Positions 12,626 to 55,593 are shown, numbered from the whole stretch's first letter. The stretch: DNA of 63,923 nt, filler included, from an uncultured Gemmatimonadota bacterium (GCA_964490075.1; 3 parts of 3 records of this genome joined end to end with filler, not necessarily neighbours in it); one strand, 5' to 3'. Numbers and translations: made by a program. Notes: a model not told the origin generated them from the sequence alone.

Positions 12626-14004
<1,379 letters not shown>

Positions 14005-36187: not shown

Positions 36188-37162
36188 ATGAGCTCGATTC
36201 GTTACGTCGCCCCCCTGGACCGTGCGCTGCAACACATGCGCACCATGCTCTTTCGGCCCTTCGCCGCCAAGAAATGGCTGGTGATCGCCTTCGCCGCGTG
36301 GCTCGCCGATCTCGGCAGCGGCGGCGGCGGCGGTCCCTCTTCGACCTTCGATGCGAGCGACGCGGTGCGCAAGAGCTGGGGGGCGGCGGATGCGGGCCTC
36401 CTGCCGCCGGGCCTGTCCGGACCCTTCTCGGAGTGGAGCTCGTCGTCGGCCTTCTTCGGGCTCTCGGTCCTGGCCCTGGGGCTGGTGGTGATCGGCGCCG
36501 TGCTGCTGGCCCTCCTGGTCTTGTGGATCAGCGCGCGCGGCAAGTTCATCTTCCTCGACTGCGTGATCCACGACCGCGCCGCCATCAAGGCGCCCTGGAG
36601 CCGCTACCGGCAGCAGGGCAACTCGCTCTTCCTGTGGAACCTGGCGTGGATCACGGCGGGGATGCTGGCGGTCAGCGCGGTGGCCGCGGCGGTGATGCTC
36701 GGTGGCCTGCTCTCGGGCCTGCTGAGCGGGTTCGAGCCCGGAGTCGCTCCGATCATCGGTCTGGTGCTGGCGGCCGCCCTGCCCGTGATCCCGCTCCTCT
36801 ATCTCTTCCTGTGGATCGAGAGCTTCGTGGTCCCGATCATGTACCGCCGCGAGATCGCCATTCTGGAGGCCCTGAAGGAGTTCTGGGGACTGCTCTCGGC
36901 GCGTCCCGCGCCCTTTGTCCTCTACGGCCTCTTCTATCTCCTGATGCTGCTCTGCGTGTTCTTCGTGGTGATCGCATTGGTGGTGCTGACCTGCGGAGTC
37001 GGGGCTCTGCTGCTCATCATTCCCTACGTGGGGGCGGTGGTGATGCTGCCGATCAGCATCACTTTGCGCGCCTACTCTCTGGCCTGGCTGGAGCAGATCG
37101 ATCCGCGCTATGGGTTGAGCGTCGAGCCTGGAGCTCCGCCCCAGTTCCCTGACCCCGCGTAG
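36188..37162 (+). CDS. Uncharacterised integral membrane protein
   Basis: Several TM segments, LF.PF...KW, FVVPIMY motif. Confidence 0.75.
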   Translation: MSSIRYVAPLDRALQHMRTMLFRPFAAKKWLVIAFAAWLADLGSGGGGGPSSTFDASDAVRKSWGAADAGLLPPGLSGPFSEWSSSSAFFGLSVLALGLVVIGAVLLALLVLWISARGKFIFLDCVIHDRAAIKAPWSRYRQQGNSLFLWNLAWITAGMLAVSAVAAAVMLGGLLSGLLSGFEPGVAPIIGLVLAAALPVIPLLYLFLWIESFVVPIMYRREIAILEALKEFWGLLSARPAPFVLYGLFYLLMLLCVFFVVIALVVLTCGVGALLLIIPYVGAVVMLPISITLRAYSLAWLEQIDPRYGLSVEPGAPPQFPDPA

Positions 37163-37506
37163 CGACCGAATGTGGCCGCTCACTACCCGCCCGCGGCGGG
37201 GGGATGGACGCGGAGCTCCTGATCGCGACTTGACCATCGCACTCCGATGAACCGAGCTCACAAGGTGAGGGGACGAACGAGCTGCGCGGAGTGCGGGCAA
37301 TGACACGCAACCTGTTGACACAGTGTGATATGACCGGGCCCAAAAGGTCCCCAGGCCCCCAGGCCCCGCTGACGCTCCACGGCTGCCCCTCGGTTCCAGA
37401 ACCCCACCGATTCCCAAGGCCCCACGTGCCCCCAAACCGGCGCTGGAGCGATGTCGCGAGCACCTGTCCTCGCAACGGAGAATTGACCGCGCAGGTGGAG
37501 AATCGC

Positions 37507-38441
37507 ATGGAGGCGTCGAACACCCGCGGGGAGCATGATCTCAACCGAATCTTCTCTGGGCTTCTCGCGGCCATCGCCATCGCCGTGGCGGTCTTCCCCG
37601 GTGACGCGAGAGTACTGCGTGTCCCGGGGGATCATCCGACGATCGGCGCGACGCTGGAAGCGGCGGAGGACGGTGACCTTGTGCGGGTGTGGCCCGGTAC
37701 GTACGTCGAAGACCGGCTCTCTTTCGGTGGCAAGAATATTGTTGTCGCGGGACTCGATCATCTCGATCCGAAGGTGGTGACCGCGACCGTCATCACGGCG
37801 GATACTTCATTGCACGACCGAAACGTCGTATTCGAGAATGGAGAGGACTCCACCGCGGCCTTGGTCGGTATCAGCATCAGAGTGCCGACAACCGAGGACG
37901 ACTGGCCCTACTACCTCGGTGGCGTCCGCTGCGTGGACAGCTCCCCCACCATCGCTTACTGTCGAATCAGCAGATCTCTTGCGGCGGGCCTGTTGTGATC
38001 ACGGACAATTGTGGCGTATGCGGGGGCGACTCCACGCGCGGTAGCGACAATGCGCTCGCGATGCGCTTCGACCAGGCAGTGGTGGAAAATTGCGTCGTTC
38101 TGGGAGAGAAGACGCTGGTGAGAACCAAGGAGAGCAACGGGCGAATCGAGTGCTCGCTGGTGCAGCGTGGATGGCCCGGCGTGGGAAATATCGACACCCT
38201 TCCCGGGTTCGTGAGCGTCGGTGACCATCCCTATGCTCTTCGGAAGTCGTCTGCCTGTATCGATGCGGGCAACCCAATGTTGCGCGACGGCCTCGGGTGG
38301 CCCCGCCGCTACGGCAATGAGGAACGGTCCGACATGGGAATCTACAGCGGGCCCTGCAACGGACTTTGGGCGAATCGGGCGGATCGCGACTGCCAGAGGA
38401 TCAGCGCGGTCCTGAAGCGGTTGGAGGCGCTCAGGGAGTAG
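37507..38441 (+). pseudogene. Frameshifted/deleted secreted parallel beta-helix protein
   Basis: RVPGDHPTI..A....GD.V.V.PGTY.E, stop at 37998, then another frame with S.CIDAG.P and RSDMG.Y.GP, typical of such proteins. Confidence 0.65.
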
Positions 38442-38639
38442 AGGTGCCGCCTCACCTTGGCCTCTTGAGGAGTGCCGCGATCTCTCGCGCAGCAGTGGGC
38501 AAAGAACCGAGATGGCCCGGGGCGGGTTCCCTCGATGTGGGCTCGCCTGAGTAGCGGCGCATGGCGGCCCCGCCAGCGAGCACTTCATCGGCCAACTGAC
38601 GGAGTTCCTGGGTGAGCCCCACGTCGCGGTGCTGCCATC

Positions 38640-38893
38640 GGGGCCGGATCGGCAGAGGCAGCGAACCGGGAACGTCGTTCGCCACGATTGGGTCCTCGTT
38701 GACAGCGCTGGCGGGTTTGACCATCACAGGCGGAAGAACGCGCCGCGCGGCGCGGACATCGACATCGCGGCACCCAGGCCGCCGGCCTCGCGGCACCCAG
38801 GCCGCCGGCGTCGCGGCACCATCAGGGGTCTATCTGGTTCGGCTCGAGGTGCGAGAGAGCTCTTCGTTGCGGCGTGTCGTGTTGCTGAAATAG
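38640..38893 (+). pseudogene. Fragment of a secreted protein ending in a FlgD/T9SS-like CTD, with a 23-bp tandem repeat (38765-38820)
   Basis: L.GLTITGG and SGVYLVRLE....RRVVLLK (same ending as the M28 protein). TCGCGGCACCCAGGCCGCCGGC x2.4. Confidence 0.5.
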
Positions 38894-39100
38894 TCGGGCG
38901 GATTCCCCGGCGGAACGCGATCTTGCTCCGCCCATCGCGGCGACTTGGTAGACGCGGAGATCCTGGTCTCGATCCTCGAACGTAGCGGCCACCCCCCAAT
39001 CCGCGTTATGCTCTCCATACTTGGTGCGGTATCGCAACACCGCACCCGGGGGGTGCGGAATCGACTATGTGGCCGCGGGCGGCGCGCGGGCGGACACGCG

Positions 39101-39610
39101 ATGTCGAGTCCCGAATCGGGCCATCCCCATGGAGATACCGTGAACGAAACAGAGGCAATCCGGCAAGCACCCGAGCTCAAAGGCTCGGCGACCCACGAGC
39201 GGCTGAGGCGCGCCTTCGACATCGCCTCGCGTTCCGTGCAGCGCCTGCTCTATCTCGCCAACATGGCCGACATCGAGGGCCGCTCCCACGCTGCTTCCGC
39301 CTTGCGCGAGCTGGCCCAGGGCGAGGCGGTGAACGCCCAGGGACACCTCGATCTGCTGCGACGGGTTGGAGATCCGGTGACCGGCCTGCCGATCGGAGAG
39401 ACCAGACAGAATCTCGACGCCCTGAGGGTGTCGGAGCTCGACGAGGCCGAAACCACCTACCCGAACATGGCGCGCACCGCCCGTGCCGAGGGCTTCCTCG
39501 ACATCGCCGACTGGTTCGACACCTTGGCGAAGGCCAAACGGGACTTCGCCGCACGCCTCGACGACCTGTCTTCTCCGCAGGATGCACCCGTCGCCGGCGA
39601 TTCCGCCTGA
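39101..39610 (+). CDS. Rubrerythrin-like (short ferritin-fold) protein with degenerate diiron ligands
   Basis: LKGS.T...L..AF, AD.EG, GHL, GDP.TGLPIG.T..NL, YP.MA.TAR.EGF.DIADWF.TLAKA. Alternative GTG start at 39140. Confidence 0.8.
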   Translation: MSSPESGHPHGDTVNETEAIRQAPELKGSATHERLRRAFDIASRSVQRLLYLANMADIEGRSHAASALRELAQGEAVNAQGHLDLLRRVGDPVTGLPIGETRQNLDALRVSELDEAETTYPNMARTARAEGFLDIADWFDTLAKAKRDFAARLDDLSSPQDAPVAGDSA

Positions 39611-39638
39611 GCCACCCACGCCGCGCCTCGAAATAGCC

Positions 39639-41612
39639 ATGAGCCACTCCACCAACGATTCCGCCGGCCCCAGCCGCCAGGTCTACGACGCCCGCAGCAT
39701 CACCGTGCTGCCCGGGCTCGAAGCGGTTCGCCGCCGCCCCGGCATGTACATCGGTGCCACCGACGTCCAAGGGCTGCACCACCTGGTCTTCGAGGCGGTC
39801 GACAACGCCGTCGACGAGTCGCTGGCCGGTTTCTGCGCCCGCATCGCGGTCGCCGTCCACCGGGACGGCTCCTGCTCCGTCGAAGACGACGGCCGCGGCA
39901 TCCCGGTCGACCTGCACCCCGACGAGAACAAGCCGGCCTGTGAGGTGGTGCTCACCACGCTGCACTCCGGCGGCAAGTTCGAGCGCGGCAGCTACGGCAT
40001 CGCGGCCGGCCTGCACGGGATCGGGATCTCGACCGTCAACGCGCTCTCGGAGTGGCTCACGCTCGACGTCTACCGCGACGGCGTGAGCTACCGCCAGCGC
40101 TACCGGCGCGGGCGCGTCGCATCGCCCCTCGAGGAGGTGGGATCGATCGAGCGCCGCGGCACCCGAATCCACTTCATGCCCGACGCGGAGATCTTCGGCG
40201 CGGGCGTCGAATTCTCCGCCGAGCGTCTGCTGAGCCGGCTGCGGGAGCTCGCCTTCCTGGAGCCCGGCATCGAGATCCGCTACTCCGACGAGCGCGACGG
40301 GCGCGACGAGCTCTTCTGCTTCGCGGGCGGGATCCCCAGCTTCGTCGAGCACCTGAACCGCGCCCGCACCGCGCTGCACCCCGCGCCGATCCACATGCGC
40401 TCGCGCCTGAACGGCATCCGCATCGAGCTCGGCCTGCAATGGACCACCGGCTACGCCGAGGATCTGTGCAGCTTCGTCAACCACGTGCGCACCTCCGATC
40501 ATGGCAGCCACGTCGACGGCCTGATGGCGGCCATGACGCGGGCCATGAACCGCCATGCCGCCGACCGCCGGCTGCTCGAGTCGGGGGAGCGGCTGCAGAC
40601 CATGGACCTGCTAGAGGGACTGGCCGGCGTGCTCTCGGTGCAAATGACCGAGCCGCAGCTCGAGGGGCAGACCAAGACCCGCCTGCGCAGCGACCACGTG
40701 GCGGAGGTGGTCGAGGAGGGGGTGGTGCGGCACCTCGCGAGCTACCTCGAGGAGAATCGCTCGGTGGCCGCCACCATCATCGGTCGGGCGCTCGAGGCGC
40801 AGCGGGCACGGATCGCCGCCCGGCGAGCATCCGAGAGCGCTCGCTACGAAGCCTCCCAGGCCGAGGTCAACGAAGATGTCTACCGCGCTCAGTTCGGCAT
40901 CCGCTCGGAGAACTGGCACGAGTCGGCCACCTGGATCACCCACGAGAACCTGCTGGCGGCCCACGCCGCGGCCTCGAAGATGCCCGAGGACGGAGTGCTG
41001 CTCGACGTCTGCTGCGGCAGCGGCGTGGTGGGGGCCTCGTTCCAGGGCAAGGTGGGGCGCATCGTCGGCCTCGACCTCACCCCGCAGATGGCCGCGCTGG
41101 CTCGCACCCGACTGGACGAGGTGCACCTCGGCAACATCTATCACATCCCCTTCGACGAAGGCACCTTCGACGGCGTGGTGACGCGCGAGGTGCTGCACCT
41201 GCTGCCGGAGCCGGAGCGCCCGGTGGCGCAGATCTTCCGGGTGCTGAAGCCGGGCGGCCAGTTCATCGTCGGCCACATCCTGCCCTACGGGCCGACCGAT
41301 GCGCCGTGGATGTGGCGGGTCTTCAAGAAGAAGCAGCCGCTCATCTTTAGCATGTTCCAGGAGGAGGACTTCCGCGCGCTCCTGGAACAGGCCGGGTTCG
41401 TCGACATCGAGATGACCGAGCAGACCGTCTGGGAGTCGATCGACCTCTGGATCGACACCCACGAGACGCCCGCCATCCACCGCCACGAGATTCGCCGCCT
41501 CTTCGACAGCGCGCCGCAGATGGTTCGTGACGTCCATCCCTTCGAGATCCTGCCGAGCGGCGAGATCCGCGACCTCTGGCGTTGGTGCGTGTTCTCGGCG
41601 CGCAAGCCCTGA
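39639..41612 (+). CDS. Fusion: GyrB/ParE N-terminal GHKL ATPase+transducer domain :: class I SAM methyltransferase
   Basis: GLEAVRRRPGMYIG, LHHLVFEAVDNAVDE, DDGRGIP, LHSGGKF, GLHGIG, EGQTK, ARIAARRA. No TOPRIM; instead LLDVCCGSG, GLDLT..M, FD.V, VLKPGG. Confidence 0.88.
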   Translation: MSHSTNDSAGPSRQVYDARSITVLPGLEAVRRRPGMYIGATDVQGLHHLVFEAVDNAVDESLAGFCARIAVAVHRDGSCSVEDDGRGIPVDLHPDENKPACEVVLTTLHSGGKFERGSYGIAAGLHGIGISTVNALSEWLTLDVYRDGVSYRQRYRRGRVASPLEEVGSIERRGTRIHFMPDAEIFGAGVEFSAERLLSRLRELAFLEPGIEIRYSDERDGRDELFCFAGGIPSFVEHLNRARTALHPAPIHMRSRLNGIRIELGLQWTTGYAEDLCSFVNHVRTSDHGSHVDGLMAAMTRAMNRHAADRRLLESGERLQTMDLLEGLAGVLSVQMTEPQLEGQTKTRLRSDHVAEVVEEGVVRHLASYLEENRSVAATIIGRALEAQRARIAARRASESARYEASQAEVNEDVYRAQFGIRSENWHESATWITHENLLAAHAAASKMPEDGVLLDVCCGSGVVGASFQGKVGRIVGLDLTPQMAALARTRLDEVHLGNIYHIPFDEGTFDGVVTREVLHLLPEPERPVAQIFRVLKPGGQFIVGHILPYGPTDAPWMWRVFKKKQPLIFSMFQEEDFRALLEQAGFVDIEMTEQTVWESIDLWIDTHETPAIHRHEIRRLFDSAPQMVRDVHPFEILPSGEIRDLWRWCVFSARKP

Positions 41613-41719
41613 GCGCCGCCCGCCGCCGGTCCATGAAGCCCCTTGAACGATGATATGCTAGCCCTACCAGCGAGACGCTGGCCCGAGCCACACGACTCGG
41701 AACGCTAGGAGTGAACGCC

Positions 41720-43405
41720 ATGCGCAAACCATCACTGGCTCCAGAGCTCTACGCCGCATCGGATACCACGGTCGATCAGCACTATATGGGTCTGATGCGC
41801 GAGCAGGATCAGGCACCGCGCCCGACCGACCGGAACCTGCCGCGCTTCTCCCTGGTGGTCGGCCCCTCGCCCTTCACCATGCCGCGCGGCTGGGAATTCT
41901 TCCTGACCTCGCCCTACGAAGGTGCGAGCTACGTCGCCACGGTGCTGCACAACGCCGGCTACCCGACCCGCATCATCGACGTGCGCTACGCCCGCGACCC
42001 GATCGGCGAAGCACTGCGCCAGATCGAGGAGGGGACCGACGTGCTCGGGGTTTGCACCTTCGAGGACAACTACCCCTTCGTGCGCCGGCTGGTCGACCGC
42101 GTCAAGGACGCATCGCCGCAGCTGCCGGTGATCCTGGGCGGCTCGCTGGTGACTTCGTCGCCGCATATCTTCATGCAGCACACGCGTGCCGACATCGGAG
42201 TGATCAGCGAAGGCGAGCTCACCATCCTGGAGCTGATGGAGGCCTACACCGCCGGCCAGTGGCCGCGCCGCCTGAGCGAGATCCGCGGTCTGGTCTACCG
42301 CGACGCCGAGGGCAAGATGCGCCGCACCCCGCCGCGCGGTCAGATGCCCGATCTCGACTCGCTGCCGCGCATGCGCCTCGATCTCTGGCCGCAGGCCCAG
42401 GGACCGCAGGGGTTGCAGCCGCAGATCATCGCCTCCTACAGCCGCGGCTGCTACATGGACTGCTCGTTCTGCTACCGCACCACGCCCCAGGAACGGGTCA
42501 AGTCCCCCGAGAAGATGAACGCCGACATGAAGTGGCTGAAGGAGCGCTACGACACCGAGTTCATCTTCTTCGTCGACCTCACCTTCAGCGCCCGCCGCGA
42601 CTACACCCTGCAGATGATGGACGTGATCAAGGACCACGACGTGCGCTGGACCTGCCTCACCCGCTGCTCCGACGTCGACCCGGTGCGCCTGGAGGCGATG
42701 AAGGGGGCCGGCGCCGACATCATCCTCTACGGCGTGGAGTCGCTCGGCAAGGCGAGCCTGAAAGAGGCGCGCAAGGGCAACTCCGAAAATCTGACGGTGC
42801 GCGCCATGTACGACACCTGGGACGCCGGCATCCGCTTCGGCGGCCTGATGATCGTCGGCCTGCCCGGCGAGACCAAGGAGACCCTCGACCACGCCTGCGA
42901 CTGGGCCGAGGAGCACCAGCACATCACCCGCGTCAAGTACCTCTCGGCCATGCCCGGCACCTCGGTGTTCCAGCAGGGGCTGCAAGACGGCCTGATCCGT
43001 TCCGAGATCGATCACCTGAACTGGCTGTCGATCGAGCAGGCCCTGGTGCAGGACGAGTTCATCAACTACACAGGCATGCCGGAAGCCGACCTGCGCGTCG
43101 CCTACCGGCGTCTCTACGATGCCTATCAGCCGGGTCCGGTGGTCGACTTCAAGCACTGGCCCGGCTTCTTCGAGTACCATCAGCCCAACACGACCGACGG
43201 CTCCGGCGCCTGCGTCGACTACGCGGGCCAGGGCTGGCGATCGCGGTTCTCCTCGGCCGGGCCCTACCTGCTTCCGGGCTCCGAGTCCTTCGGGCTGGCC
43301 GACGTGGGCGCGCGGGGAGTGAGCGACACCGGGGCCGCCGTCGACTGGGCGGTCGAGATGCGTGAAAAGGAGTTTCGCGCGCCACTGGAAGCGAATGGCG
43401 GTTGA
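41720..43405 (+). CDS. B12-binding radical SAM enzyme (class B methyltransferase-like)
   Basis: N-terminal cobalamin-binding fold (VILGG, EGE.TI.EL), SRGCYMDCSFC, YGVES, IVGLPGET, PGT. AGGAG RBS at 41707. Confidence 0.9.
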   Translation: MRKPSLAPELYAASDTTVDQHYMGLMREQDQAPRPTDRNLPRFSLVVGPSPFTMPRGWEFFLTSPYEGASYVATVLHNAGYPTRIIDVRYARDPIGEALRQIEEGTDVLGVCTFEDNYPFVRRLVDRVKDASPQLPVILGGSLVTSSPHIFMQHTRADIGVISEGELTILELMEAYTAGQWPRRLSEIRGLVYRDAEGKMRRTPPRGQMPDLDSLPRMRLDLWPQAQGPQGLQPQIIASYSRGCYMDCSFCYRTTPQERVKSPEKMNADMKWLKERYDTEFIFFVDLTFSARRDYTLQMMDVIKDHDVRWTCLTRCSDVDPVRLEAMKGAGADIILYGVESLGKASLKEARKGNSENLTVRAMYDTWDAGIRFGGLMIVGLPGETKETLDHACDWAEEHQHITRVKYLSAMPGTSVFQQGLQDGLIRSEIDHLNWLSIEQALVQDEFINYTGMPEADLRVAYRRLYDAYQPGPVVDFKHWPGFFEYHQPNTTDGSGACVDYAGQGWRSRFSSAGPYLLPGSESFGLADVGARGVSDTGAAVDWAVEMREKEFRAPLEANGG

Positions 43406-43439
43406 GCGCGCCGCGGGGCGGCGGGCGCAGGAGTGAAGA

Positions 43440-44180
43440 TTGACAGCCCAGGATGTTCGGGAACATTTCTCGGCGCGAGCGGAACGCTATGACCGTTCCA
43501 GCCACTGGTGCGGCGACCGCGATTTCCTGCGGCGGATCATCGCCCGGATCGGCGTCGGACCGGGCGCGACGGTGCTCGACGTGGCGTCGGGGACCGGTCA
43601 GGTGGCACGGGTGCTGCGGGAGACGGGCGCGACCGTGGTCGGGCTCGATTTCACGGAGGCGATGCTGCGCCAGGGAGTCCTCCGCACCGACCGTTTCTTG
43701 ACCGCCTCGGCCGAGGCGATGCCGCTGGCCGACGACTCTGTCGACGCGGCGATTGAGCGCCAGGGGATCCAGTTCATGGACGACCAGGCGGCGGTGCGCG
43801 AGATGGTGCGGGTGACGCGCCCCGGCGGGCGGGTCTGCCTGGTGCAGCTCTGCGCTTTCGGCAACGACGACGAGCGCGAGTACTTCGAGATTCTGCGGCT
43901 GCGCAACCCGGCCCGGCGCAACTTCTACCGGCTCGAGCGGCTGGACGAGCTGCTGCGCAACGCGGGCTGCCGCGAGGTGGCGGTGCACCGCGAGCACTCC
44001 CGCGAGGACGTCCGGATCTGGGCCGACAACGGAGCCATTCAGAGCGAGGCTCAGCGCGCCATCGAGGCCTGCTACCGCGACGCCTCGGAGCCTTTCCGGC
44101 GCCTGCACCAGGTGCACTTCGAGGGCGAGGGGACGATCGTCGACCACATGCTCTTCGGCATCGCGATTGGTACTTGTTGA
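43440..44180 (+). CDS. Class I SAM-dependent methyltransferase
   Basis: VLDVASGTG, GLDFT.AML, EMVRVTRPGG. TTG start with AGGAG RBS. Confidence 0.9.
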   Translation: MTAQDVREHFSARAERYDRSSHWCGDRDFLRRIIARIGVGPGATVLDVASGTGQVARVLRETGATVVGLDFTEAMLRQGVLRTDRFLTASAEAMPLADDSVDAAIERQGIQFMDDQAAVREMVRVTRPGGRVCLVQLCAFGNDDEREYFEILRLRNPARRNFYRLERLDELLRNAGCREVAVHREHSREDVRIWADNGAIQSEAQRAIEACYRDASEPFRRLHQVHFEGEGTIVDHMLFGIAIGTC

Positions 44181-45598
44181 TGGGGACCAGCCAGCAGGGA
44201 CCGATCGGGGGCACGGGCCAGGCGGCGGAGTCGCTGGACGAGGCCCGTCCCAACGGCATCGATTCCGGTCTGGTGGCGGCGCTGAGCGACATTGCGCAGC
44301 GATCGCCGATCTCGACCCAGAGCTTTCGGCGCCGCGTGCGCGATCTGATCCTGGTCTGCTCGAGCTCGCGGGGCGGCTCCAGCGTGTTCTCCGAGATGCT
44401 GCGCCACTCCGAAGATCTGCTGCATTTCCGCGCCGAGATCAACCCCTTCCTGGTGCTCAGCGAGCTCTCGTGGCCGCGCAGCGAGACCGGCTCGGACCAG
44501 CTCCACGCCCACCACGCGACGCGCGCCGACGCCCTCGACTTCTGGCTGGCCTGGGATGTCGGCGGGCAGGCGGAGCGTCTGCGCAACGACGAAGAGCTGG
44601 ACCGTTTCGCGGTGCATCTCACCTGGCGGCTGCAGGCGCAGTGGCCGGAGGAGCGCTTCGAGATCGACGAGGTGCATCGCCGGGCGCTCGAGGTACTGCG
44701 CGAGCCCAGCGACAACCATCCCGGAATCGACGATCCGCAGCATTTCCACATCTGCTTCCTGAAACGGCTGCGGCGCGACCATCCGCGGGTCAACCCCTAC
44801 TACTACGATCTCGATCCGGCGCTGATCGCTCGGCTCGATCCCGAGGCGGGTGTTCCCGACGGTCCGCCCAGCGACTTCCTGATCGAGGAGCCGCCCTTCG
44901 TCGCCACCCTGCCCTGGGCGGTGCCGACCGCGGAGGAGATCGAGAGCCGCCCGCTGGTGATCAAGACGCCGAGCAACGCCTATCGGCTGCCCTTCTTCCG
45001 CGCTTTCTTCCCCAACGCCCGCATCCGCACCCTGCACCTGACCCGCCACGCCGCCGACGCCATCAACGGCCTCTACGACGGCTGGCTGCACCGCGGCTTC
45101 TTCTCCCATCCGGTGCAGGCGGCGCTCGGGGGCCGCGAGCTGAGCATCCCTTCCTACAGCGACGACCAGCCCGAGTGGGGGAAGAGCTGGTGGAACTTCG
45201 ACCTGCCGCCGGGCTGGCAGGAGTGGATCGACGCGCCTCTGGAGCAGGTCTGCGCCTTCCAGTGGCGGGCGGCGCACCAGGCGGTGCTCGACTGGGTGGC
45301 CGAGGCTGACTCGGTCGACTACTTCCGGGTGTCGTTCGAAGAGAGCGTGCTGGCGTCTCCGGCCAAGCGCCGCGAGGTCTTCGAACGCCTGGCGGCATGG
45401 ATCGGAATCCCCTACCGGGGCGGGTTGGCGCGGGCGGTTCAGAGGGGACTGCCGCCGATCATGGCGATGGCGCCGCCCAAGCGCGACCGCTGGCGGGCGC
45501 GCGCCGAGCGCATCGAGCCCTTGCTGCGCGAGCCCCGCAACCGGGAGCTGCTGCTGCGCCTGGACTATCCGGCGCCGGCGCCGCGCGAGGGGCCCTGA
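44180..45598 (+). CDS. PAPS-dependent sulfotransferase family protein
   Basis: 5'-PSB-like SSSRGGSS..SEML, V.KTP.N, HLTR...D.I.GL..GW, CA.QW, V.FEE. TGATG coupling with the upstream gene. Confidence 0.8.
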   Translation: MGTSQQGPIGGTGQAAESLDEARPNGIDSGLVAALSDIAQRSPISTQSFRRRVRDLILVCSSSRGGSSVFSEMLRHSEDLLHFRAEINPFLVLSELSWPRSETGSDQLHAHHATRADALDFWLAWDVGGQAERLRNDEELDRFAVHLTWRLQAQWPEERFEIDEVHRRALEVLREPSDNHPGIDDPQHFHICFLKRLRRDHPRVNPYYYDLDPALIARLDPEAGVPDGPPSDFLIEEPPFVATLPWAVPTAEEIESRPLVIKTPSNAYRLPFFRAFFPNARIRTLHLTRHAADAINGLYDGWLHRGFFSHPVQAALGGRELSIPSYSDDQPEWGKSWWNFDLPPGWQEWIDAPLEQVCAFQWRAAHQAVLDWVAEADSVDYFRVSFEESVLASPAKRREVFERLAAWIGIPYRGGLARAVQRGLPPIMAMAPPKRDRWRARAERIEPLLREPRNRELLLRLDYPAPAPREGP

Positions 45599-45605
45599 GG
45601 GCCCG

Positions 45606-47168
45606 ATGAGCCCCAAGCTCGGCCTGGTCGCCCTCGCGGGACTCATCGTCGCGACGGGTGTGGCGATCCTGCATCTGCTCGGCCGAGGCGCATCGGAGCC
45701 GGTTGCCGCGCAGAGGGAGCCCCTGCACTTCGAGACCCGGCAGCCGAACTTGCTGGTGATCGCCCTCAACAACGTCTCCTGGGAGCACATGAGCCTCTCC
45801 GGCTACCATCGCCAGACCACGCCCGAGCTCGATCGCTGGGCGCGCGATGCGGTCGTTTTCAAAAACTTCTACTCCCACTGCTCGTGGACTCTGCCGGCCG
45901 GCACCTCGCTTTTCACCTCGCTCTATCCCTACAGCCATCGCGTGATGGATCGCTATCACGGCAATCTGCTCGACGAAGAGGTGATGCCCCTGGCCGAGGT
46001 GCTGGCGCGCAACGGCTACCGCGGCGCGGCGTTCACCGGGGGGCTCGACTACAAGCCGATCTTCGGACATATGCGGGGCTTCGAGCAGATCGCCGACAAT
46101 CCCAACTTCACCTCTTTCGCCACTACTTTCGCCCAGGCCGAAGAGTGGATCGAAGAGAGCGACGGCCGTCCTTTCTTCTGTTTCGTACACGGTTACGACG
46201 CCCATTCCCCCTTCAATCCGCCCGAACGCTTCAAGGGTGTGTTCAGCGATCCGGCGGGCAAGAACATCACCGTGACCACGCAGTACTCATTGCGCGGCTA
46301 CCAGGCCGAGGGCGGGGACTATGTCGCTTATTACATCTGGAACGAAGACCCTTTCTTGAAGAAGTCGGAGGCCGAGCGTGCCGGCAAGCGCTTTCCGATG
46401 GAGCGGCGCGTGGTGCTGACCGCCGACGACATCGACTATCTGACCGCGCTCTACGACGAGGAGCTGCTCTATATCGATTCGTTGCTGGCCGATTTCCTGT
46501 CTTCGTTGCAGCCGTCGGTGCTCGACAACACGGTGATCGCACTGGTTTCCGAGCATGGCGAGATGTTCGCCAAGCACGGGCGCTTCGGGCGCGCGGGAAC
46601 GGTGCGTGGCAACCTCTACGACGACGTGGTGCACGTTCCATTTCTGTTGCGAGCTCCGGGACTGGAAGGGCGGCGGGTCGATGCCCTGGCGCAGATGGTC
46701 GATGTGATGCCGACGCTGCTGGAGCTGCTGGGGATCACTCCGCCGGTCGGCGTGCAGGGCAAAAGTCTGTTGCCGGCGGTGGAGAGCGGCGCGGTGGTCA
46801 ACGAGCTGGTCTTCGCCGGAGCGCGTTTCAACCACGCGCGCAAGAAGAGACACCCTTTCTTCTGGGCCGAGACGCTGAACGAGTCGGTGCGCAGCCGCCG
46901 GTGGAAGCTGATCCGCGAGCTGGTCCACCCGGCCGCCAAGGGCTGGGAGGTGATCGAGGCGGCCGAGACCTTCGAGCTCTACGACATGGCGGAGGATCTG
47001 GGCGAGCAGGTCGACGTGGCGGCACTTCATCCGGATGTGACGGAGCGGCTCAAAGGCGAGCTTGCGGCCTGGGCCGATGAGTGCGGGGCCGCGGCGCGGA
47101 TGAGCCCGGCGACGGTCGAGGTGTCCGGCGAGATGGAACGCGAAGCGCGCGAGAAGGGCTATTGGTGA
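45606..47168 (+). CDS. Membrane-anchored sulfatase-like protein
   Basis: PNLLVI, GY.RQTTPELD, SWTLPAGTSLFT, HGYDAH, SEHGE, DVMPTLL, ELYD. Confidence 0.85.
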   Translation: MSPKLGLVALAGLIVATGVAILHLLGRGASEPVAAQREPLHFETRQPNLLVIALNNVSWEHMSLSGYHRQTTPELDRWARDAVVFKNFYSHCSWTLPAGTSLFTSLYPYSHRVMDRYHGNLLDEEVMPLAEVLARNGYRGAAFTGGLDYKPIFGHMRGFEQIADNPNFTSFATTFAQAEEWIEESDGRPFFCFVHGYDAHSPFNPPERFKGVFSDPAGKNITVTTQYSLRGYQAEGGDYVAYYIWNEDPFLKKSEAERAGKRFPMERRVVLTADDIDYLTALYDEELLYIDSLLADFLSSLQPSVLDNTVIALVSEHGEMFAKHGRFGRAGTVRGNLYDDVVHVPFLLRAPGLEGRRVDALAQMVDVMPTLLELLGITPPVGVQGKSLLPAVESGAVVNELVFAGARFNHARKKRHPFFWAETLNESVRSRRWKLIRELVHPAAKGWEVIEAAETFELYDMAEDLGEQVDVAALHPDVTERLKGELAAWADECGAAARMSPATVEVSGEMEREAREKGYW

Positions 47169-48013
47169 GGGGCGTAGGGGACGGCGCTTGGAGCGTCGCG
47201 CTGGCGTTTGTGCTGTGGGCGGCGGCCTGTGGCGGGGAGCGGGGGGACTGGGTCGAGGAGCAGAGGTTCGCGAACATCCCACGCAGTGGAAAGCGGGTGG
47301 TCTCCGGCCGGGTGGATTGCCCCGACTGCGAGGGAGAGATCCAGGTGACGGTGGCGGAGCTGCGGTTCGAGCTGACCGGCTCGCCGATCATCCGCGAGAT
47401 CGTCTGGATCGAGGAGCCGTGGCGCTTTCGCATCGACCGGCTGCCGGAAAAAGCGTCGCTGTCGATTCAGGCGCGTTGGGATCCGGGCGACACGGTGAGC
47501 TGGGGACCGCCCCTACCGAGCAGCCGGCTGATGCAGATCGAGCCCTTCCCTCCGGGCTCGGAGCCGATCGAAGGGATCGAGCTGGCGCTGCTGACCGCCG
47601 GCCAGGTGAAGGTCCGGCCGGGGGGGGGCGAGTCGGAGCGGAGGGCGACTCCCCCGAGTCCATTGAAGCTGGTGGACGAGCCCGAGGGCCTGCGGGTGCG
47701 GACTCTCACCGGCACGATCGAGTGCGCGGCCTGCACCGGCAGCTTGGCGGTGTTCCTCTCGGCGGTTCCGGTCGAAGATCCGCTGAGCACGGAGGTGGAC
47801 GCGCGGGTGTTTTTACACTCGGGCGAGGAGTTCAGCTTTGGCGGCGTGATCGCGACTCGCGAGTTCTTCCTCGGAGCCCGCTGGGACGCCGACGGCGAGC
47901 CGGGGCGGGGGCCGCCGGGACCCGAGGACCACTTCACGGTGCGGCCCATTCCGGCGCTGGGGCTGGACGAAGAGCAGCTCCCCCTGGCGATCGATTTGAT
48001 GTCGGCTTGGTGA
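47165..48013 (+). CDS. Hypothetical lipoprotein with two homologous CxxC-containing domains
   Basis: Lipobox AAAC. SGRVDCPDCEG...ARWDPG..GPP and TGTIECAACTG...ARWDADG..GPP. Confidence 0.6.
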   Translation: MRGVGDGAWSVALAFVLWAAACGGERGDWVEEQRFANIPRSGKRVVSGRVDCPDCEGEIQVTVAELRFELTGSPIIREIVWIEEPWRFRIDRLPEKASLSIQARWDPGDTVSWGPPLPSSRLMQIEPFPPGSEPIEGIELALLTAGQVKVRPGGGESERRATPPSPLKLVDEPEGLRVRTLTGTIECAACTGSLAVFLSAVPVEDPLSTEVDARVFLHSGEEFSFGGVIATREFFLGARWDADGEPGRGPPGPEDHFTVRPIPALGLDEEQLPLAIDLMSAW

Positions 48014-48093
48014 GGCTCGGCGGTCTCGACGTGGGTGGTTCTGGCCGCTTGCCCATTCCCGATCCGGCGGATTTGGCAACGGATCGAGGGCAA

Positions 48094-48408
48094 CTATCCG
48101 GCCTTGCGGCGACGCTCGTACTCCACACGCTCCGCCAGGTAGATCTTGAGAAGGGACTGGTACGGAACGTCGCGCTGGTTCGCCAGCACCTTCAGCTCGT
48201 TTAGAAGCGACTCGGGGAGACGAAGCGATATGGTGGCGGTCGATGGCTTCAGCCGTGCCAGGGTCACCGCCTGGGCCTTCGACCAATCGACGTAATCGAT
48301 CGAATCGTGAGAGTCCCAGAACTCCCGCTCTTCTTCCTCGGTCTTGAATCGCGGCAGGTTCTTCGGGCGCATGGCTCTACGTTTCGGACTCCTCTTGCGC
48401 TCGCTCAT
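48094..48408 (-). CDS. brnA: BrnA/CopG-family antitoxin
   Basis: P.FKTE.EEREFWD.HDS.DY.D, ISLRLP..LL..LK..A....VPYQSL.K. Confidence 0.88.
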   Translation of the reverse strand: MSERKRSPKRRAMRPKNLPRFKTEEEEREFWDSHDSIDYVDWSKAQAVTLARLKPSTATISLRLPESLLNELKVLANQRDVPYQSLLKIYLAERVEYERRRKAG

Positions 48409-48436
48409 ACTCTCTCCGCTCCCGCCGGCTCATGGG
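48377..48436 (-). pseudogene. C-terminal remnant of BrnT toxin
   Basis: PMSRRERREYE overlaps the antitoxin start, as in the usual brnT/brnA junction. The rest of the gene is absent. Confidence 0.6.
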
Positions 48437-48479
48437 AGTCATATACGCCCGTCAGGGGAATGGGCGAGAAGACTCGTGT

Positions 48480-49955
48480 CTAGTACTCCGCAATCGGCGT
48501 CTCGCGCAAATCGCGGAACGACTCGGGCGCCTGGCGCACGCGACGCATCCAGCCGCGCAGCTCCTGCTCCATCTCGTAGGTGCGGCGCGGCGCGCGGCTG
48601 GAGAGGTCCTGGCGCTCCAGCGGGTCGGAGCTCAGGTCGTAGAGCTCGCGCTGCCCGCTGCGCAGGTCGAAGATCAGCTTCCAGGGGCCGTCGCGCAGCA
48701 TCCGCCGGTGCACGAAGAGCCGGTAGTCGGTCTCGGCGATCACCTCGATCTCGAGCGGCTCGCCGCGCAGCAGGGGCAAGAGGCTGCGGGCGTCGATCCC
48801 GACCGGCGGCGCGATCCCCAGGGCGTCGAGCACGGTCGGCAGGGCGTCCATCGAGCGCACCGGCTCGGTGATCTCCAGGCGCTTGGTGTAGCCCGGGAAG
48901 CGGATCAGGAGCGGTACGTGGACCATCTCCTGGTAGAGCGTGGGACCGTGATCCAGCCCGCCGTGCTCGCCGAACTCCTCGCCGTGGTCGGCCAGCACGA
49001 TGATGATGGTGCGCGAGAGCAGATCGAGGCGCCGGAGCGCGCTCAGGAAACGCCCCACCTGCTCGTCGGCCGCCTGCACCTTCTCGTCGTAAAGCCCCAG
49101 GTGGTACTCGAAGTCGGCCGCGCTCATCAGGTCGGAGGCGCGCGGGCCGCCCTCTTCGGTGTAGCAGGTCAGCGATTGCTCGCGGATCTCGGCCTGCTCG
49201 TCCTTGCCCCCTTTCAGGGTGCCGTCGTAGTCGGGGGTGAAGTGGCCCGAGTAGCCGGAGGCCGGATCGAACTGGCCGTGCACGTCGTAGCCGTGCAGGA
49301 AGAGGAAGAAGCGCTCGCTGCGGTGCGTTTCCAGCCACGAGATGGCGGCCGGAACCGAGTGCGGCAGGCCGCCGAACTTCTCGTCGTCGAGGTAGGTTTC
49401 GAAGCCGCGCGAGAAGCCGAACTCGCCCGAGACCCCGGCGTCGCCGGTGAAGCCGCCGCAGAGGAAGCCCTGGTCGCGCAGCAGCTCAGGCATGGTCGGG
49501 ATGGCCGGCGAGAGCGAGGCGCGCTCCAGGCGATCGCCGCCGACTACCCGCAGCTTGTTCACCACGCCGTGGATCGAGGGCCAGCGCCCGGTGAAGATCG
49601 ACATGTGGGACGGAAGGGTCCAGGCCGAGGGCGAGGTGGCGTCGGCGAAGAACACCGCCTCGTCGGCCAGGCGGTCGAGATTCGGGGTGACGTCGCGCTC
49701 GTTGCCGCCGAAGCCGCAGCGGTCGTAGCGCAGGGCGTCGAGCGAGATCAGGCAGATATTGAGCGGCTCGCCTTCGAAGTCGAAGCGGGATTCGGCCCGG
49801 GTGCGCTCTTCGAGCAGGCGGCCGATGCGCTCGCCGCCGCTGCTCTCGGCCTCGGAGGGGCGATCGAGCAAGAGCCAGACGATGACGGCGACGTTTGCGG
49901 CGACGATCGCCGCGCCGGCCATCAGGAAGGGACGCAGGCGGCTGGATTGGCTCAT
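48480..49955 (-). CDS. Membrane-anchored sulfatase-like protein
   Basis: ISLDALRYD, TPNLD.LA, AWTLPSHMSIFTG, HGYDVH, ADHGEE, ELYDL..DP.E. Confidence 0.88.
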   Translation of the reverse strand: MSQSSRLRPFLMAGAAIVAANVAVIVWLLLDRPSEAESSGGERIGRLLEERTRAESRFDFEGEPLNICLISLDALRYDRCGFGGNERDVTPNLDRLADEAVFFADATSPSAWTLPSHMSIFTGRWPSIHGVVNKLRVVGGDRLERASLSPAIPTMPELLRDQGFLCGGFTGDAGVSGEFGFSRGFETYLDDEKFGGLPHSVPAAISWLETHRSERFFLFLHGYDVHGQFDPASGYSGHFTPDYDGTLKGGKDEQAEIREQSLTCYTEEGGPRASDLMSAADFEYHLGLYDEKVQAADEQVGRFLSALRRLDLLSRTIIIVLADHGEEFGEHGGLDHGPTLYQEMVHVPLLIRFPGYTKRLEITEPVRSMDALPTVLDALGIAPPVGIDARSLLPLLRGEPLEIEVIAETDYRLFVHRRMLRDGPWKLIFDLRSGQRELYDLSSDPLERQDLSSRAPRRTYEMEQELRGWMRRVRQAPESFRDLRETPIAEY

Positions 49956-50453
49956 GAGGGGTCCGGCTTGGTGGTTCCAGGGCCTGTGCGGGGGGCTCCC
50001 GCCGGCCCGGATGGAATCTAGCACGGGGTGGGGGTGGGCACGGCGAGCCTGATGAACGTTGACACTTCGACATGACGCTCGCCTTTAGAGCACACCCCGC
50101 CGAGGCGACGATCTCGACTTCGTCAGCCCCGCCTTCCGGAGCGAAAACGCGCCTCCAGGTTGGGACCCCCGTGCCCACCCGGACTTCGGCCCCTTCGCTA
50201 TTCTCGACATTCAGTTCGAAGACGAGACAACCATCACCGAGCATTCTCAAACCTGGGGTCTGGTCGACGCCCTGGCAAAGGCTGATGCCAGGCCCTACAT
50301 GGTCCCCTACGTGAAGCTGAGCGGCTACATGGAGAACGTCAACGGACAGGTGCAAGAGGCGATCATGGACCGTACCTTCTGGCCCGAGACCGTCACCACC
50401 GGCAGCATCGTGCTCAACTCGGGGCCGCCGCAGTGATCGGCCCGATTTTGACA

Positions 50454-50553
50454 NNNNNNNNNNNNNNNNNNNNNNNNNNNNNNNNNNNNNNNNNNNNTTA
50501 ATTAATTAANNNNNNNNNNNNNNNNNNNNNNNNNNNNNNNNNNNNNNNNNNNN
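50454..50553. other. Artificial contig join
   Basis: N-run with TTAATTAATTAA linker. Confidence 0.98.
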
Positions 50554-50555
50554 GC

Positions 50556-52760
50556 CGACGTGGGTGGACCCGCGAGCAGGTCGCGCGCTTCAACCGGGAG
50601 CGCTTCGACGACCTCGTCTCGGCCGGCTGGGACCTCATCATCATCGATGAAGCGCACCGCCTCGGCGGGAGCACCGAGCAGGTCGCGCGGTACCGGCTGG
50701 GTGAGGCACTGGCCCAGGCTGCGCCCTACCTGCTCCTCCTCTCGGCAACGCCGCACCAGGGCAAGACAGACGCGTTCCGCCGGCTCGTCAGCTTCCTCGA
50801 CGCCAAAGCGCTACCGGACGATGAGTCTGTTCGCAGGGAGAATGTCGCGCCCCACGTCATCCGGACCGAGAAGCGGCGCGCCATCGACGCCGATGGCAAC
50901 CCTCTGTTCAAGCCGCGCCGCACGCAGCTCGTCCCCGTGGCCTGGGACGAAGGCCGCCACGAGCAGCGGGCGCTCTACGAGGCCGTCACCGAGTACGTCC
51001 GCGAGGGATACAACCAGGCGCTCCGAGAGAAGAAGACCGCCATCGGCTTCCTCATGATCCTGATGCAGAGGCTGGTCACCTCGAGCACCGCAGCGATCCG
51101 CACGGCGCTCGAACGTCGCCTGAACGTGCTTCAGCTCCCGCAGGGCCAGCTCTCCTTGTTCCCCGAGGACGTCGGCGAGGAGTGGGTCACCCTCGACGGG
51201 CAGGACCAGATGGAGTCCATCCTGAAGTCCCGTCTGAAGGGTCTGAAGAACGAACGCGCCGAGGTCGAGCTGATGCTCTCGGCCGCCCGTCGATGCGAAG
51301 CACGAGGGCCCGACATCAAGGCCGAAGCGCTCCTTGGCTGGGTTCAGCAGCTCCAGCGCGAGGAGAACGATCCAAGCCTCAAGGTGCTGGTGTTCACGGA
51401 GTTCGTTCCGACCCAGGCGATGCTGGCCGAGTTCCTCCGCAACCGCGGGTACACCGTGACCTGCTTGAACGGCTCCATGGGCCTGGACGAACGCCGCGGC
51501 GTGCAACGAGCGTTCGCCGAAGAGGCGCAGGTGCTCGTGTCGACGGACGCCGGCGGCGAGGGACTGAACCTCCAGTTCTGCCACGTCGTCGTGAACTACG
51601 ACCTGCCCTGGAACCCCATGAAGTTGGAGCAGCGCATCGGCCGGGTAGACCGCATCGGTCAGTCGCACGTCGTGCGCGCGTTCAACTTCGCGCTGGAGGA
51701 CACCGTCGAGCTGCGGGTTCGTGAAGTCCTCGAGGAGAAGCTCGAACGGATCCTGGAGGAGTTCGGTGTCGACAAGCTGGCCGACGTTTTGGACTCCGAG
51801 GAAGGCGACGTCGACTTCGACAACCTCTACGTCGGCGCCGTGCTCACCCCCGGCGACGCCGAGCAACGCGCGGCCGCCCTGGCCGAGGAGATCCGACGCC
51901 GAGCACAGGCTGCACGCGATGGGGCGAAGGTCTTGGCCGCGACCGAACGGCTCGACCCCGCTGCAGCACAGAAGATCGCGGCTCACCAGATCCCCTTCTG
52001 GGCCGAGCGGATGACGGTCGCCTTCCTGCGCACGAAGCGAGAGGCTGGAGCGGAAGCAGAGCGAGATGACGTCGGGTATCGGCTCCGCTGGCCCGACGGC
52101 ACCGAGGTGAGCAAGGCCGTGTTCGCGCGGCACGAAGCCGAGGATCCGGGCACGACCCACCTCTCGTTGGAGGATCCGCGTGTTCGCAGCCTGACCGGGT
52201 CCCTTCCGCACTTCGCTCCCGGGCAACCGCTGACCGCCGTGGAGGTCCCCGGTGTCTCCGACAAGGTGTCGGGAACCTGGTCGCTATGGCGGGTGGCCCT
52301 CCAAGCCTCCGAGGGGCGCGAGCAGAGGATGGTGCCGTTGTTCGTCAGCGATGCTGGTCGTCTACTCGGTCCGACCGCTCGAGTCGTGTGGGACCGGCTG
52401 ATCGAGATGGACAGCGACGTGGTGGTTGTTCCCGCTTCGGTCACCGGTGACGCAGCGACGGCGGCCTACGATGACGCTCGGAGGGCGGCCGAAGAACACG
52501 GCATGGCCGTCTTCCGGGAGCTCGTCGACGACCACCGCGACCGCCTCCGGCGAGAGCGGAGGAAGACCGTTCACGCCTTCGCAGCTCGTCGACGTGCGAT
52601 CGAGCGCATTGGCCTGCCCCAGGTTCGGAGTCACCGTCTCGCGCAGCTCGAACAGGAAGAGCGGCAGTGGAAGACCGAGATGGACGCGAAGGAGAACACC
52701 CTTCCCGAGCTGTCCGCGGTGGTGCTCGTGCGAGTCGCGGCCGCCGGGGAGATCGCATGA
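50556..52760 (+). CDS. brxHII: SNF2-family helicase of type 3 BREX (5' truncated by the gap)
   Basis: In frame upstream of the listed ORF: LIIIDEAHR, LLLSATPHQG. Then STDAGGEGLNLQF, YDLPWNP..LEQRIGR.DRIGQ. Coupled to pglZ. Confidence 0.85.
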   Translation, partial: RRGWTREQVARFNRERFDDLVSAGWDLIIIDEAHRLGGSTEQVARYRLGEALAQAAPYLLLLSATPHQGKTDAFRRLVSFLDAKALPDDESVRRENVAPHVIRTEKRRAIDADGNPLFKPRRTQLVPVAWDEGRHEQRALYEAVTEYVREGYNQALREKKTAIGFLMILMQRLVTSSTAAIRTALERRLNVLQLPQGQLSLFPEDVGEEWVTLDGQDQMESILKSRLKGLKNERAEVELMLSAARRCEARGPDIKAEALLGWVQQLQREENDPSLKVLVFTEFVPTQAMLAEFLRNRGYTVTCLNGSMGLDERRGVQRAFAEEAQVLVSTDAGGEGLNLQFCHVVVNYDLPWNPMKLEQRIGRVDRIGQSHVVRAFNFALEDTVELRVREVLEEKLERILEEFGVDKLADVLDSEEGDVDFDNLYVGAVLTPGDAEQRAAALAEEIRRRAQAARDGAKVLAATERLDPAAAQKIAAHQIPFWAERMTVAFLRTKREAGAEAERDDVGYRLRWPDGTEVSKAVFARHEAEDPGTTHLSLEDPRVRSLTGSLPHFAPGQPLTAVEVPGVSDKVSGTWSLWRVALQASEGREQRMVPLFVSDAGRLLGPTARVVWDRLIEMDSDVVVVPASVTGDAATAAYDDARRAAEEHGMAVFRELVDDHRDRLRRERRKTVHAFAARRRAIERIGLPQVRSHRLAQLEQEERQWKTEMDAKENTLPELSAVVLVRVAAAGEIA

Positions 52761-54820: not shown

Positions 54821-55593
54821 CGCGCAGGAGCGCCATAGGGTTCGACCGGCGGATCGACATCGAGTGGGTCGACGCGGCGGCGGGCAAGGTCGCCTCCGGC
54901 TCGAGCGAGCAGGAGGTCCGCGAGTACCTCTGGAAGATGCTGGACGGTGTCGTCTCCGGCGAGAAGCGCAACAGCGCTCGGGGCAAGACCGTCACCGTGC
55001 TCAGCCACATCTGGTCCCAGGTGCCTGCTCGCGCTCGCCCGCTACGAGACCGAGCCGTGGAGCTCCTGCCGGAGGTGAAGCCGGAGCAGCGGCTCGCCAT
55101 CCACTGGGCGATGGTGCTCGGGACCTACCCGTTCGCGACGGACGTGGCAGCGGGCGTGGGGAAGCTGCTCGCTCTCCAGGGCGACGTCGCCCTGTCGCAG
55201 CTGACCAGGAGGCTCGTCGAGACCTGGGGCGAGCGCTCGACCATGGTGCGCGCGGCGCAACGCATCGTCCGGTCCATGGTCCAGTGGGGCGTGCTGAAGG
55301 ACACCGACGTTCGAGGGATCTACGAGCGCGCCGACAGGCGTCGCGTCGTGAACAACCAGATTGCGCAGTTGCTCATCGAGGCGTTGCTGGTCGACGCCGG
55401 CGAACGCCTCATTTCGGTGGACCAGCTCGTCGGCCACGCGGCGCTGTTCCCGTTCAATCTCTCGATCGGCGCCCACCAGCTCCGCAGGGCAGACCAGTTT
55501 CGGGTTCACCGACAGGGGCTGGATGTGGACGTGGTCGGGCTGGCCGACAAGCCCAAGCCCCCGAAGCAGCCCGAGCAGATGACGCTCTGCTAG
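54817..55593 (+). CDS. brxA: BREX-3 BrxA-like protein
   Basis: IGFDR.I..EW, KT.TVL..IW, IHW.M....YPF, WGERST..RA, LFPF. Terminal position after pglZ. Confidence 0.7.

Follow-up and report, generated by a model that had tools for sequence, protein, structure and literature searches.

A putative non-actinomycete copy of the nucleocidin/ascamycin sulfamylation gene set in an uncultured Gemmatimonadota bacterium

The sulfamoyl group (O-SO2-NH2) is a rare substituent of nucleoside antibiotics. Here we analyse seven co-oriented genes (g1–g7; positions 39,101–48,013) in a 63,923-nucleotide stretch of DNA, referred to as the window, from an uncultured Gemmatimonadota bacterium (GCA_964490075.1). Judged by homology, the cluster of this marine bacterium is a copy, from outside the actinomycetes, of the known nuc/acm sulfamylation gene set, which is biochemically unsolved. 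Combined with those of a second locus, on the genome's contig C63, the genes would encode the synthesis of a sulfamoyl (SO2-NH2) group from sulfate activated as 3′-phosphoadenosine-5′-phosphosulfate (PAPS) and its placement on a small-metabolite hydroxyl, likely that of an adenosine-type nucleoside; we assign this reading a probability of about 0.62. The product is probably a sulfamate. A first reading of this DNA from its sequence alone (the sequence-only reading) had presented the cluster as undescribed. That claim is withdrawn, because g1–g5 are homologous to NucQ/P/J/L/O and AcmQ/P/J/L/O, so that the cluster maps to a known pathway, the nuc/acm sulfamylation sub-cluster, and is already described as a kind.

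The window consists of three contigs of one assembly, C75, C76 and C96 (positions 1–26,107, 26,208–50,453 and 50,554–63,923), joined by N-containing spacers at 26,108–26,207 and 50,454–50,553. The cluster falls entirely within C76, the middle contig. Genes separated by a spacer are not true neighbours, and none past 50,453, where C76 stops, adjoins the cluster. All seven open reading frames (ORFs) are present on the plus strand, with a third-position GC of 0.79–0.91 in their frames (the G+C content of the window is 64–76% in 2-kb windows). Intergenic distances computed from the coordinates, from g1 to g7, are 25, 98, 34, −7, 7 and −88 nt. ORFs, Pfam matches and coordinates thus agree with the tight packing first described, with gaps of at most ~110 nt and two overlaps. 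The 88-nt overlap of g6 and g7 vanishes if g7 starts at an in-frame GTG near 47,165.

Proteins read from the Streptomyces calvus T3018 locus (L048) were used as queries against the window genome, and five of them matched the cluster. The NucJ query gave the closest match, with 65% identity over 541 aa to g3 (41,711–43,405), a 564-aa NucJ/AcmJ-type B12-binding radical S-adenosylmethionine (SAM) protein with Pfam matches to B12-binding (E 6.4e-14) and Radical_SAM (E 1.3e-19). NucP matched g2 (39,636–41,612) at 54% identity over 664 aa; this NucP/AcmP-type fusion of 658 aa carries HATPase_c (E 2.9e-15), DNA_gyraseB (E 2.4e-43) and Methyltransf_11 (E 5.7e-20) domains. The NucL query aligned with g4 (43,440–44,180; 246 aa), a NucL/AcmL-type class I SAM methyltransferase (Methyltransf_11, E 4e-18), at 50% identity over 245 aa, and NucO aligned at 42% over 479 aa with g5 (44,174–45,598; 474 aa), an atypical, NucO/AcmO-type sulfotransferase-like protein whose Sulfotransfer_3 match is weak (E 1.3e-7, 32.5 bits against a cut-off of 27). 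Finally, NucQ matched g1 (39,101–39,610), a NucQ/AcmQ-type pseudo-rubrerythrin of 169 aa, at 37% identity over 129 aa; its Pfam Rubrerythrin match is also weak (E 2.5e-6, 28.3 bits against a cut-off of 22.8).

The function of the set is known from Streptomyces genetics. The accessible text of Wojnowska et al. 2023 (PMC10946740) describes the deletion of 26 nucleocidin-cluster genes. Single deletion of nucI, G, J, K, L, N, O, Q or P led to loss of sulfamylation; in all nine knockouts the sulfamyl group was lost while the rest of the pathway stayed intact. The same text states that PAPS supply is also required for sulfamylation in Streptomyces, where PAPS provides the sulfur. For the nucleocidin set of S. 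calvus and S. virens as given there, the families match those of the window genome one for one, with Q/P/J/L/O in the window and K/N elsewhere in the genome, and Q stands directly upstream of P as in L048. In contrast to that set, the window organism belongs to another phylum, its gene set is split over two loci, and the window lacks the fluorination, glucosylation, purine nucleoside phosphorylase (PNP) and adenine phosphoribosyltransferase (APRT) genes, while adding two exported alkaline-phosphatase-superfamily proteins and a CxxC lipoprotein. The L048 locus itself holds the gene set together with a purine-nucleoside-phosphorylase-family gene (PNP_UDP_1), a phosphoribosyltransferase and a GT2 gene. 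A second point of comparison is the ascamycin/dealanylascamycin cluster of Streptomyces sp. JCM9888 (acmG–acmQ). The gene table in the accessible part of PMC4257720 places next to one another acmG (sulfatase), acmJ (Fe-S oxidoreductase/B12 radical SAM), acmK (sulfotransferase), acmL (UbiE-type methyltransferase), acmN (amidinotransferase), acmO (hypothetical, 444 aa), acmP (‘DNA topoisomerase II’, 658 aa) and acmQ (rubrerythrin, 155 aa). The length of acmP equals that of g2. Unlike the window, the acm cluster as listed there adds PAPS genes, alanyl-tRNA-synthetase-like genes, an esterase, halogenases and acmM.

The remaining two members of the set were found on contig C63 (G000:C63:25432–30601, which equals 10320–15489 of locus L081). 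There the gene order is a CysZ-type sulfate transporter, a NucK-type gene, a major facilitator superfamily (MFS) transporter on the minus strand and a NucN-type gene, and the group has unrelated neighbours on either side (encoding a helicase and Band 7 proteins). The NucK query matched at 40% identity over 339 aa (40–43% across matches) and the NucN query at 46% over 307 aa; the two genes are 2.2 kb apart. An APS kinase is also encoded in the genome, which gives it a PAPS supply, as in the Streptomyces set. The literature label for NucN is amidinotransferase, whereas its family profile matches bacterial dimethylarginine dimethylaminohydrolase (DDAH) at E 1.4e-24 and also arginine deiminase, with arginine:glycine amidinotransferase reaching only E 0.008. 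Among solved structures, 3rhy, 3bpb and 1h70 are nearest (E 1e-24 to 6e-23). The invariant cysteine C327 sits in a conserved G-x-G-C and is aligned with the GGvsC of 3rhy, near the C-terminus of that protein; H230 is invariant too. As judged from these profiles, the NucN family is nearest to the DDAH/arginine deiminase hydrolases and not to amidinotransferases.

Conservation of the set was assessed by scanning one genome per species, which gave 204 loci with a relative of the fusion. Eighty of these were kept for gene counts, made by tblastn with the window and C63 proteins, and 49 of the 80 have at least 8 kb on both sides (full loci). The fusion (P) is present in 80/80 loci and 49/49 full loci, and Q lies directly upstream of it in 75 of the 80 and is present in every full locus. 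With a rubrerythrin-like gene directly 5′ of the fusion in 75/80 loci, the Q–P arrangement is far beyond chance. J and L were each found in 61 loci (43 and 41 of the full loci, respectively), O in 57 (44/49), and K and N in 49 each (41/49 and 39/49). All seven core genes occur together in 37/80 loci, 13 of them non-actinomycete, and compact seven-gene operons are common (e.g., L-J-Q-P-K-O-N in L003 and L060). The picture first drawn of a conserved, co-inherited biosynthetic cluster that combines SAM, B12 radical SAM and PAPS-type sulfur chemistry, with neither nonribosomal peptide synthetase nor polyketide synthase, is borne out by these data. Unbiased clustering of ORFs of at least 90 aa in the 80 loci, a size above that of short precursor peptides, found no further cross-phylum family; regulators, DUF6027, an A-PCP protein and a second radical SAM protein hardly occur outside the actinomycetes.

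The 31 actinomycete sequences group as a single clade, with support of 100, in a tree of 77 fusion proteins. Under midpoint rooting only, this clade is nested among diverse Gram-negative and candidate-phylum lineages; the window fusion pairs with that of L001. The fusion of L040, labelled as a Bifidobacterium breve metagenome-assembled genome (MAG), falls inside a clade labelled Myxococcota or ‘proteobacterium’. MAG labels look unreliable here, as in L004, L005, L017 and others labelled Enterobacterales, and phylum counts are therefore to be read loosely. Within the actinomycetes, the Streptomyces griseus locus L075 has an A-PCP protein (AMP-binding plus PP-binding; 419–2353), DUF6027 (14138–14560) and a second B12 radical SAM protein (15124–17091) joined to the cassette. 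Loci of this type lack purine-nucleoside-phosphorylase and phosphoribosyltransferase genes, and their content points to a different sulfamate-type product in that clade.

In g2, a GyrB N-terminal 43-kDa-type ATPase (GHKL plus transducer, residues ~1–405) is followed by a class I SAM methyltransferase (~445–658). The first part resembles the GyrB 43-kDa fragment in having the GHKL fold and a transducer with a QTK loop, and a comparison of the family profile with solved GyrB 43K fragments gives E 8e-137. Unlike in GyrB, the Toprim domain and tail are replaced by the methyltransferase, and a Pfam search of g2 found neither a Toprim domain nor the GyrA-interacting C-terminal part. The best 120 database relatives listed all carry the DNA_gyraseB and methyltransferase Pfam domains at 53–81% identity, with Streptomyces, Micromonospora, Sorangium and Desulfobulbaceae among the named sources. 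Separate GyrB- and ParE-like genes are present on contigs C49 and C60 of the window genome; g2 shares 42% identity with the GyrB-like gene on C49 and is not the housekeeping enzyme. Across 24 members of the g2 family, E53, N57, D84, R87, G88, K114 and Y120 are invariant, as are the glycine-rich lid G125/G128/G130, T176 and the Q345-T-K347 loop. We take these residues, from E53 to K347, to be those of ATP binding and hydrolysis, and on this alignment the ATP site of the GyrB-type domain is intact. The SAM motif of the fusion is likewise invariant across phyla.

Rubrerythrins bind their di-iron center through two E-x-x-H motifs and two further glutamates. Only six positions (E59, G60, D84, N104, G131 and W138) are invariant in 24 members of the g1 family, so no di-iron ligand set is kept in the NucQ family; in g1 itself, the first Glu of most members is an Ala and the His of most members a Gln. 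The accessible text of PMC10946740 describes NucQ as lacking two of the six di-iron ligands. A structural model of g1 in complex with the methyltransferase domain of g2 scored 0.72, against 0.00 for the best of three controls. Of 157 solved complexes, 116 attained this mark, as did 2 of 215 mismatched pairs; both figures are only approximate because the alignments were the analysis's own. Model runs have at least 91% of contacts in common, with a partner pLDDT (predicted local distance difference test) of at least 79. Confident contacts involve the invariant G60 and W138 and the nearly invariant D134 on the Q side, and the invariant P524 and K564 and the nearly invariant A556 on the P side. 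The model supports, but does not show, binding of the NucQ-type g1 to the methyltransferase domain of the NucP-type g2.

For g3, the N-terminal B12-binding domain and the C-x3-C-x2-C core (CYMDCSFC) correspond to the class B (cobalamin) radical SAM layout. Its solved relatives (AprD4, CysS and TokK) are all distant, so that ‘methylase’ is an assumption for the NucJ-type protein; the nearest, AprD4, is annotated as an oxidoreductase and not as a methyltransferase. The g5 family profile matches only the CurM sulfotransferase 4gbm (E 1.7e-7) and the olefin-synthase sulfotransferase 4gox, and its loop SSSRGGSS aligns with the CurM loop SSPRSGST.

Combining these assignments, we propose the following order of events. 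NucK would use PAPS to N-sulfonate a guanidino group, such as that of arginine, on nitrogen, forming the S–N bond by ordinary sulfotransferase chemistry. The DDAH-like NucN would then cleave the substituted guanidine, as DDAH frees dimethylamine, to give sulfamate or a sulfamoyl intermediate. Sulfamate may be re-activated by the GyrB-type ATPase of the NucP–NucQ complex, after which the CurM-like NucO would pass the sulfamoyl group to an acceptor hydroxyl. The compact operons come without scaffold genes, and for this reason the 5′-OH of an adenosine-type nucleoside is the most plausible acceptor; its use would yield a 5′-O-sulfamoyl nucleoside for export by the MFS protein. We infer the four chemical steps (NucK, NucN, NucP–NucQ and NucO) from likeness of fold or family alone. 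The sequence-only reading had proposed a sulfated product; a sulfamate with an S–N bond, absent from that reading, is the likely group rather than a sulfate ester alone. For the GyrB-type site, an attack of sulfamate on C5′ of ATP with loss of triphosphate was also considered and dropped, because 18O is reported to be incorporated intact at C-5′ of nucleocidin (accessible part of PMC10616807). A broader proposal, that Q-P-J-L-O-K-N is a self-sufficient, ancient ‘sulfamate synthase’ pathway working by these same steps in more than 200 species of at least eight phyla, we consider rather unlikely.

Several observations weigh against the sulfamoylation reading. Its main weakness is that the scheme gives no role to three SAM-dependent enzymes, namely g3, g4 and the methyltransferase domain of g2. 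An activity has been demonstrated for none of the enzymes of the set, not even in Streptomyces, and no non-actinomycete copy has a known product. Nucleoside-tailoring genes (PNP, APRT or a glycosyltransferase) were not found near the cluster, and the acceptor is therefore a guess. A NucG or NucI orthologue could not be singled out in the window genome (S. calvus NucG matches g8 at 27% identity and 108 bits, and paralogues at up to 149 bits). K and N are absent from contig C76, so they were found for the genome and not for the locus. Additionally, none of the 49 full loci has Q-P-J-L-O without K or N, which makes the split layout of the window genome unusual. The split is common to the same-family genomes G002 and G003, in which N and P lie on different contigs, and all seven core genes stand together in G001, of the same class; these three genomes may overlap loci already counted and are not independent.

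A literature search, from which subscription papers were excluded, found no report of the gene set outside actinomycetes or of its enzymology. Within the same scope, no mention was found of the seven-gene minimal core, the Q–P pairing, a DDAH-like NucN or the non-sulfatase motif of the ‘sulfatases’ described below.

Sulfatase-family proteins accompany the cassette in the window as in Streptomyces. Downstream of g5, g6 (45,606–47,168; 520 aa; Pfam Sulfatase, E 1.9e-40) is a ‘sulfatase-like’ member of the alkaline-phosphatase superfamily with a hydrophobic N-terminal membrane anchor. Convergent to the cluster and outside the interval first noted, g8 (48,480–50,024, minus strand; 514 aa; Pfam Sulfatase, E 1.1e-35) encodes a second membrane-anchored member with a Thr nucleophile motif. 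The sequence-only reading paired g6 with the sulfotransferase as enzymes that add and remove sulfate. The motifs do not support this pairing. In an alignment including S. calvus NucG and its second copy, Thr replaces the formylglycine-forming Cys/Ser in all sulfatase-family proteins beside cassettes, and His or Gly replaces the Arg of Cys/Ser-x-Pro-x-Arg; this formylglycine motif was not found in g6 or g8 in the alignment. The g8 motif SAWTLPSH (T-L-P-S-H) aligns with the C/S-x-P-x-R of solved sulfatases, and g6 has WTLPAG (T-L-P-A-G), giving Thr-x-Pro-x-Gly/His for the pair. Moreover, g6 reads LNN where relatives have LDT or LDA, which puts Asn at the first metal-binding Asp. It is, by these motifs, probably not a sulfatase.

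The ties of the two proteins to the cassette differ. The g8-type gene was scored in 10/80 loci, all non-actinomycete (5/49 full loci), and the g6 type in 2/80 (0/49). Cassette-linked homologues of g8 in 8 loci are 45–50% identical (397–418 bits), against 35% and 220 bits for the best paralogue in its own genome; judged on these comparisons, g8 is an accessory gene specifically linked to the cassette. For g6, an orthologue at the same place is present only in L001 (71%), with a relative near the cassette in L050 (47%) and a paralogue elsewhere in the window genome at 48%, and its tie to the cassette is weak. Both g6 and g8 are 25–27% identical to S. calvus NucG and the second sulfatase-like protein, no higher than many genome paralogues, and the Thr-type motif is common to these four proteins. 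The window genome has ~60 sulfatase-family matches, an unusually large paralogue family with several members in tandem on contigs C1 and C4, so adjacency of such a gene says little by itself. A third sulfatase-family gene lies on C76 at 30,056–31,948.

The last gene, g7 (47,081–48,013; 310 aa, or 282 aa from 47,165), encodes a lipoprotein-like protein with two repeats, each with a CxxC (CPDC and CAAC), and a lipobox-like signal, LWAAAC; it has no Pfam hit. Although it had been counted as a member of the cluster, a homologue was found in 0/80 related loci (0/49 full loci), and g7 is outside the conserved set. Two paralogues occur in the window genome, at G000:C5:130944–131645 and G000:C7:43590–44432 (38% and 49–57% identical). 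The C5 paralogue has a sulfatase-family match within ~0.5 kb, so g7-type proteins may pair with sulfatase-family enzymes and not with the cassette.

An alternative that is possible, if unlikely, is that the seven genes make some other product, such as a methylated sulfur-bearing carrier or donor that Streptomyces has co-opted, and that here the substrate is perhaps an envelope or periplasmic one handled by g6 and g8. Such a product would give work to the two methyltransferase domains and the B12 radical SAM protein, which are without a role in simple sulfamoyl transfer. It would also suit the scarcity of nucleoside genes, which most non-actinomycete loci lack (the phosphorylase family appears in only 4 loci in the unbiased count), and the recurrence of exported g8-type genes beside the cassette in 10 non-actinomycete loci. 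The genetics speak for sulfamoylation instead, as the nine Streptomyces knockouts have sulfamyl loss as their single common phenotype, with the rest of the pathway intact (accessible text of PMC10946740). Also against this alternative, compact operons without any g8-type gene exist (e.g., L003, L014 and L060), and an MFS exporter and a sulfate transporter accompany K and N.

The reading first offered for the locus is very improbable. It held that a sulfated pro-form bearing several methyl groups loses its sulfate outside the cell, with the GyrB domain serving as a decoy or target mimic against a gyrase-directed product. The GyrB part is indeed very close to real GyrB, as the profile match to solved 43K fragments attests, and g6 and g8 are membrane-anchored. 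Nonetheless, nucP deletion abolishes sulfamylation (accessible text of PMC10946740), so nucP is a biosynthetic requirement and not a dispensable resistance gene, and the ATP-hydrolysis residues and SAM motif are invariant across the family and across phyla, as expected of an enzyme. The lack of the sulfatase-defining C/S-x-P-x-R in g6 and g8 and the genome's separate GyrB- and ParE-like genes tell against it as well. The activities given in the accessible literature are inhibition of protein synthesis for ascamycin and dealanylascamycin and hijacking of tRNA synthetases for nucleoside sulfamates, not inhibition of gyrase. Least credible of all is a role in nucleic-acid modification or defence, in which a GyrB-type clamp would bring the methyltransferase and radical SAM protein to DNA: only the domain content (GHKL plus transducer, methyltransferase and radical SAM) favors it, whereas g2 lacks both a Toprim domain and a GyrA-binding part, the co-conserved families include no nuclease, helicase or restriction partner, and the Streptomyces phenotype is one of small-molecule sulfamylation (accessible text of PMC10946740).

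The surroundings of the cluster on C76 add little. An Rfam scan of 36,900–50,453 at E ≤ 1 gave no matches; promoter and terminator scans yielded nothing usable (0 promoter sites against 1.0 expected, and 4 terminator-like sites against 5.0 expected). Directly 5′ of g1, a region of ~1.9 kb (37,163–39,100) has a weak third-position GC signal, and the ORFs tried there had no Pfam hit and the region no Rfam match. Upstream genes of C76 with no fit to the pathway encode a Cas1-like protein, an NrtR-type regulator, a TPR protein, a sulfatase-like protein, two dehydrogenases and a DUF7544 protein. The ORF with the Cas1 Pfam hit (E 1.2e-22) lies near the contig start, at 26,772–27,902.

The natural route to the sulfamoyl group is an open question that the cross-phylum comparison narrows at three points: a seven-gene core that occurs in compact operons without ‘sulfatases’, a modelled partnership of NucQ with the NucP methyltransferase domain, and a NucN of the DDAH type. 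Each offers a direct and cheap hypothesis for bench work. The distribution of the set suggests that metabolites of the nucleoside-sulfamate type, compounds that are potent mimics of adenosine monophosphate, may also come from non-actinomycete bacteria of marine, groundwater and sediment habitats. If the broader sulfamate synthase proposal were true, S–N bonded sulfamate metabolites would extend far beyond the handful known from actinomycetes, and the gyrase ATPase fold would have a new use in small-molecule biosynthesis.

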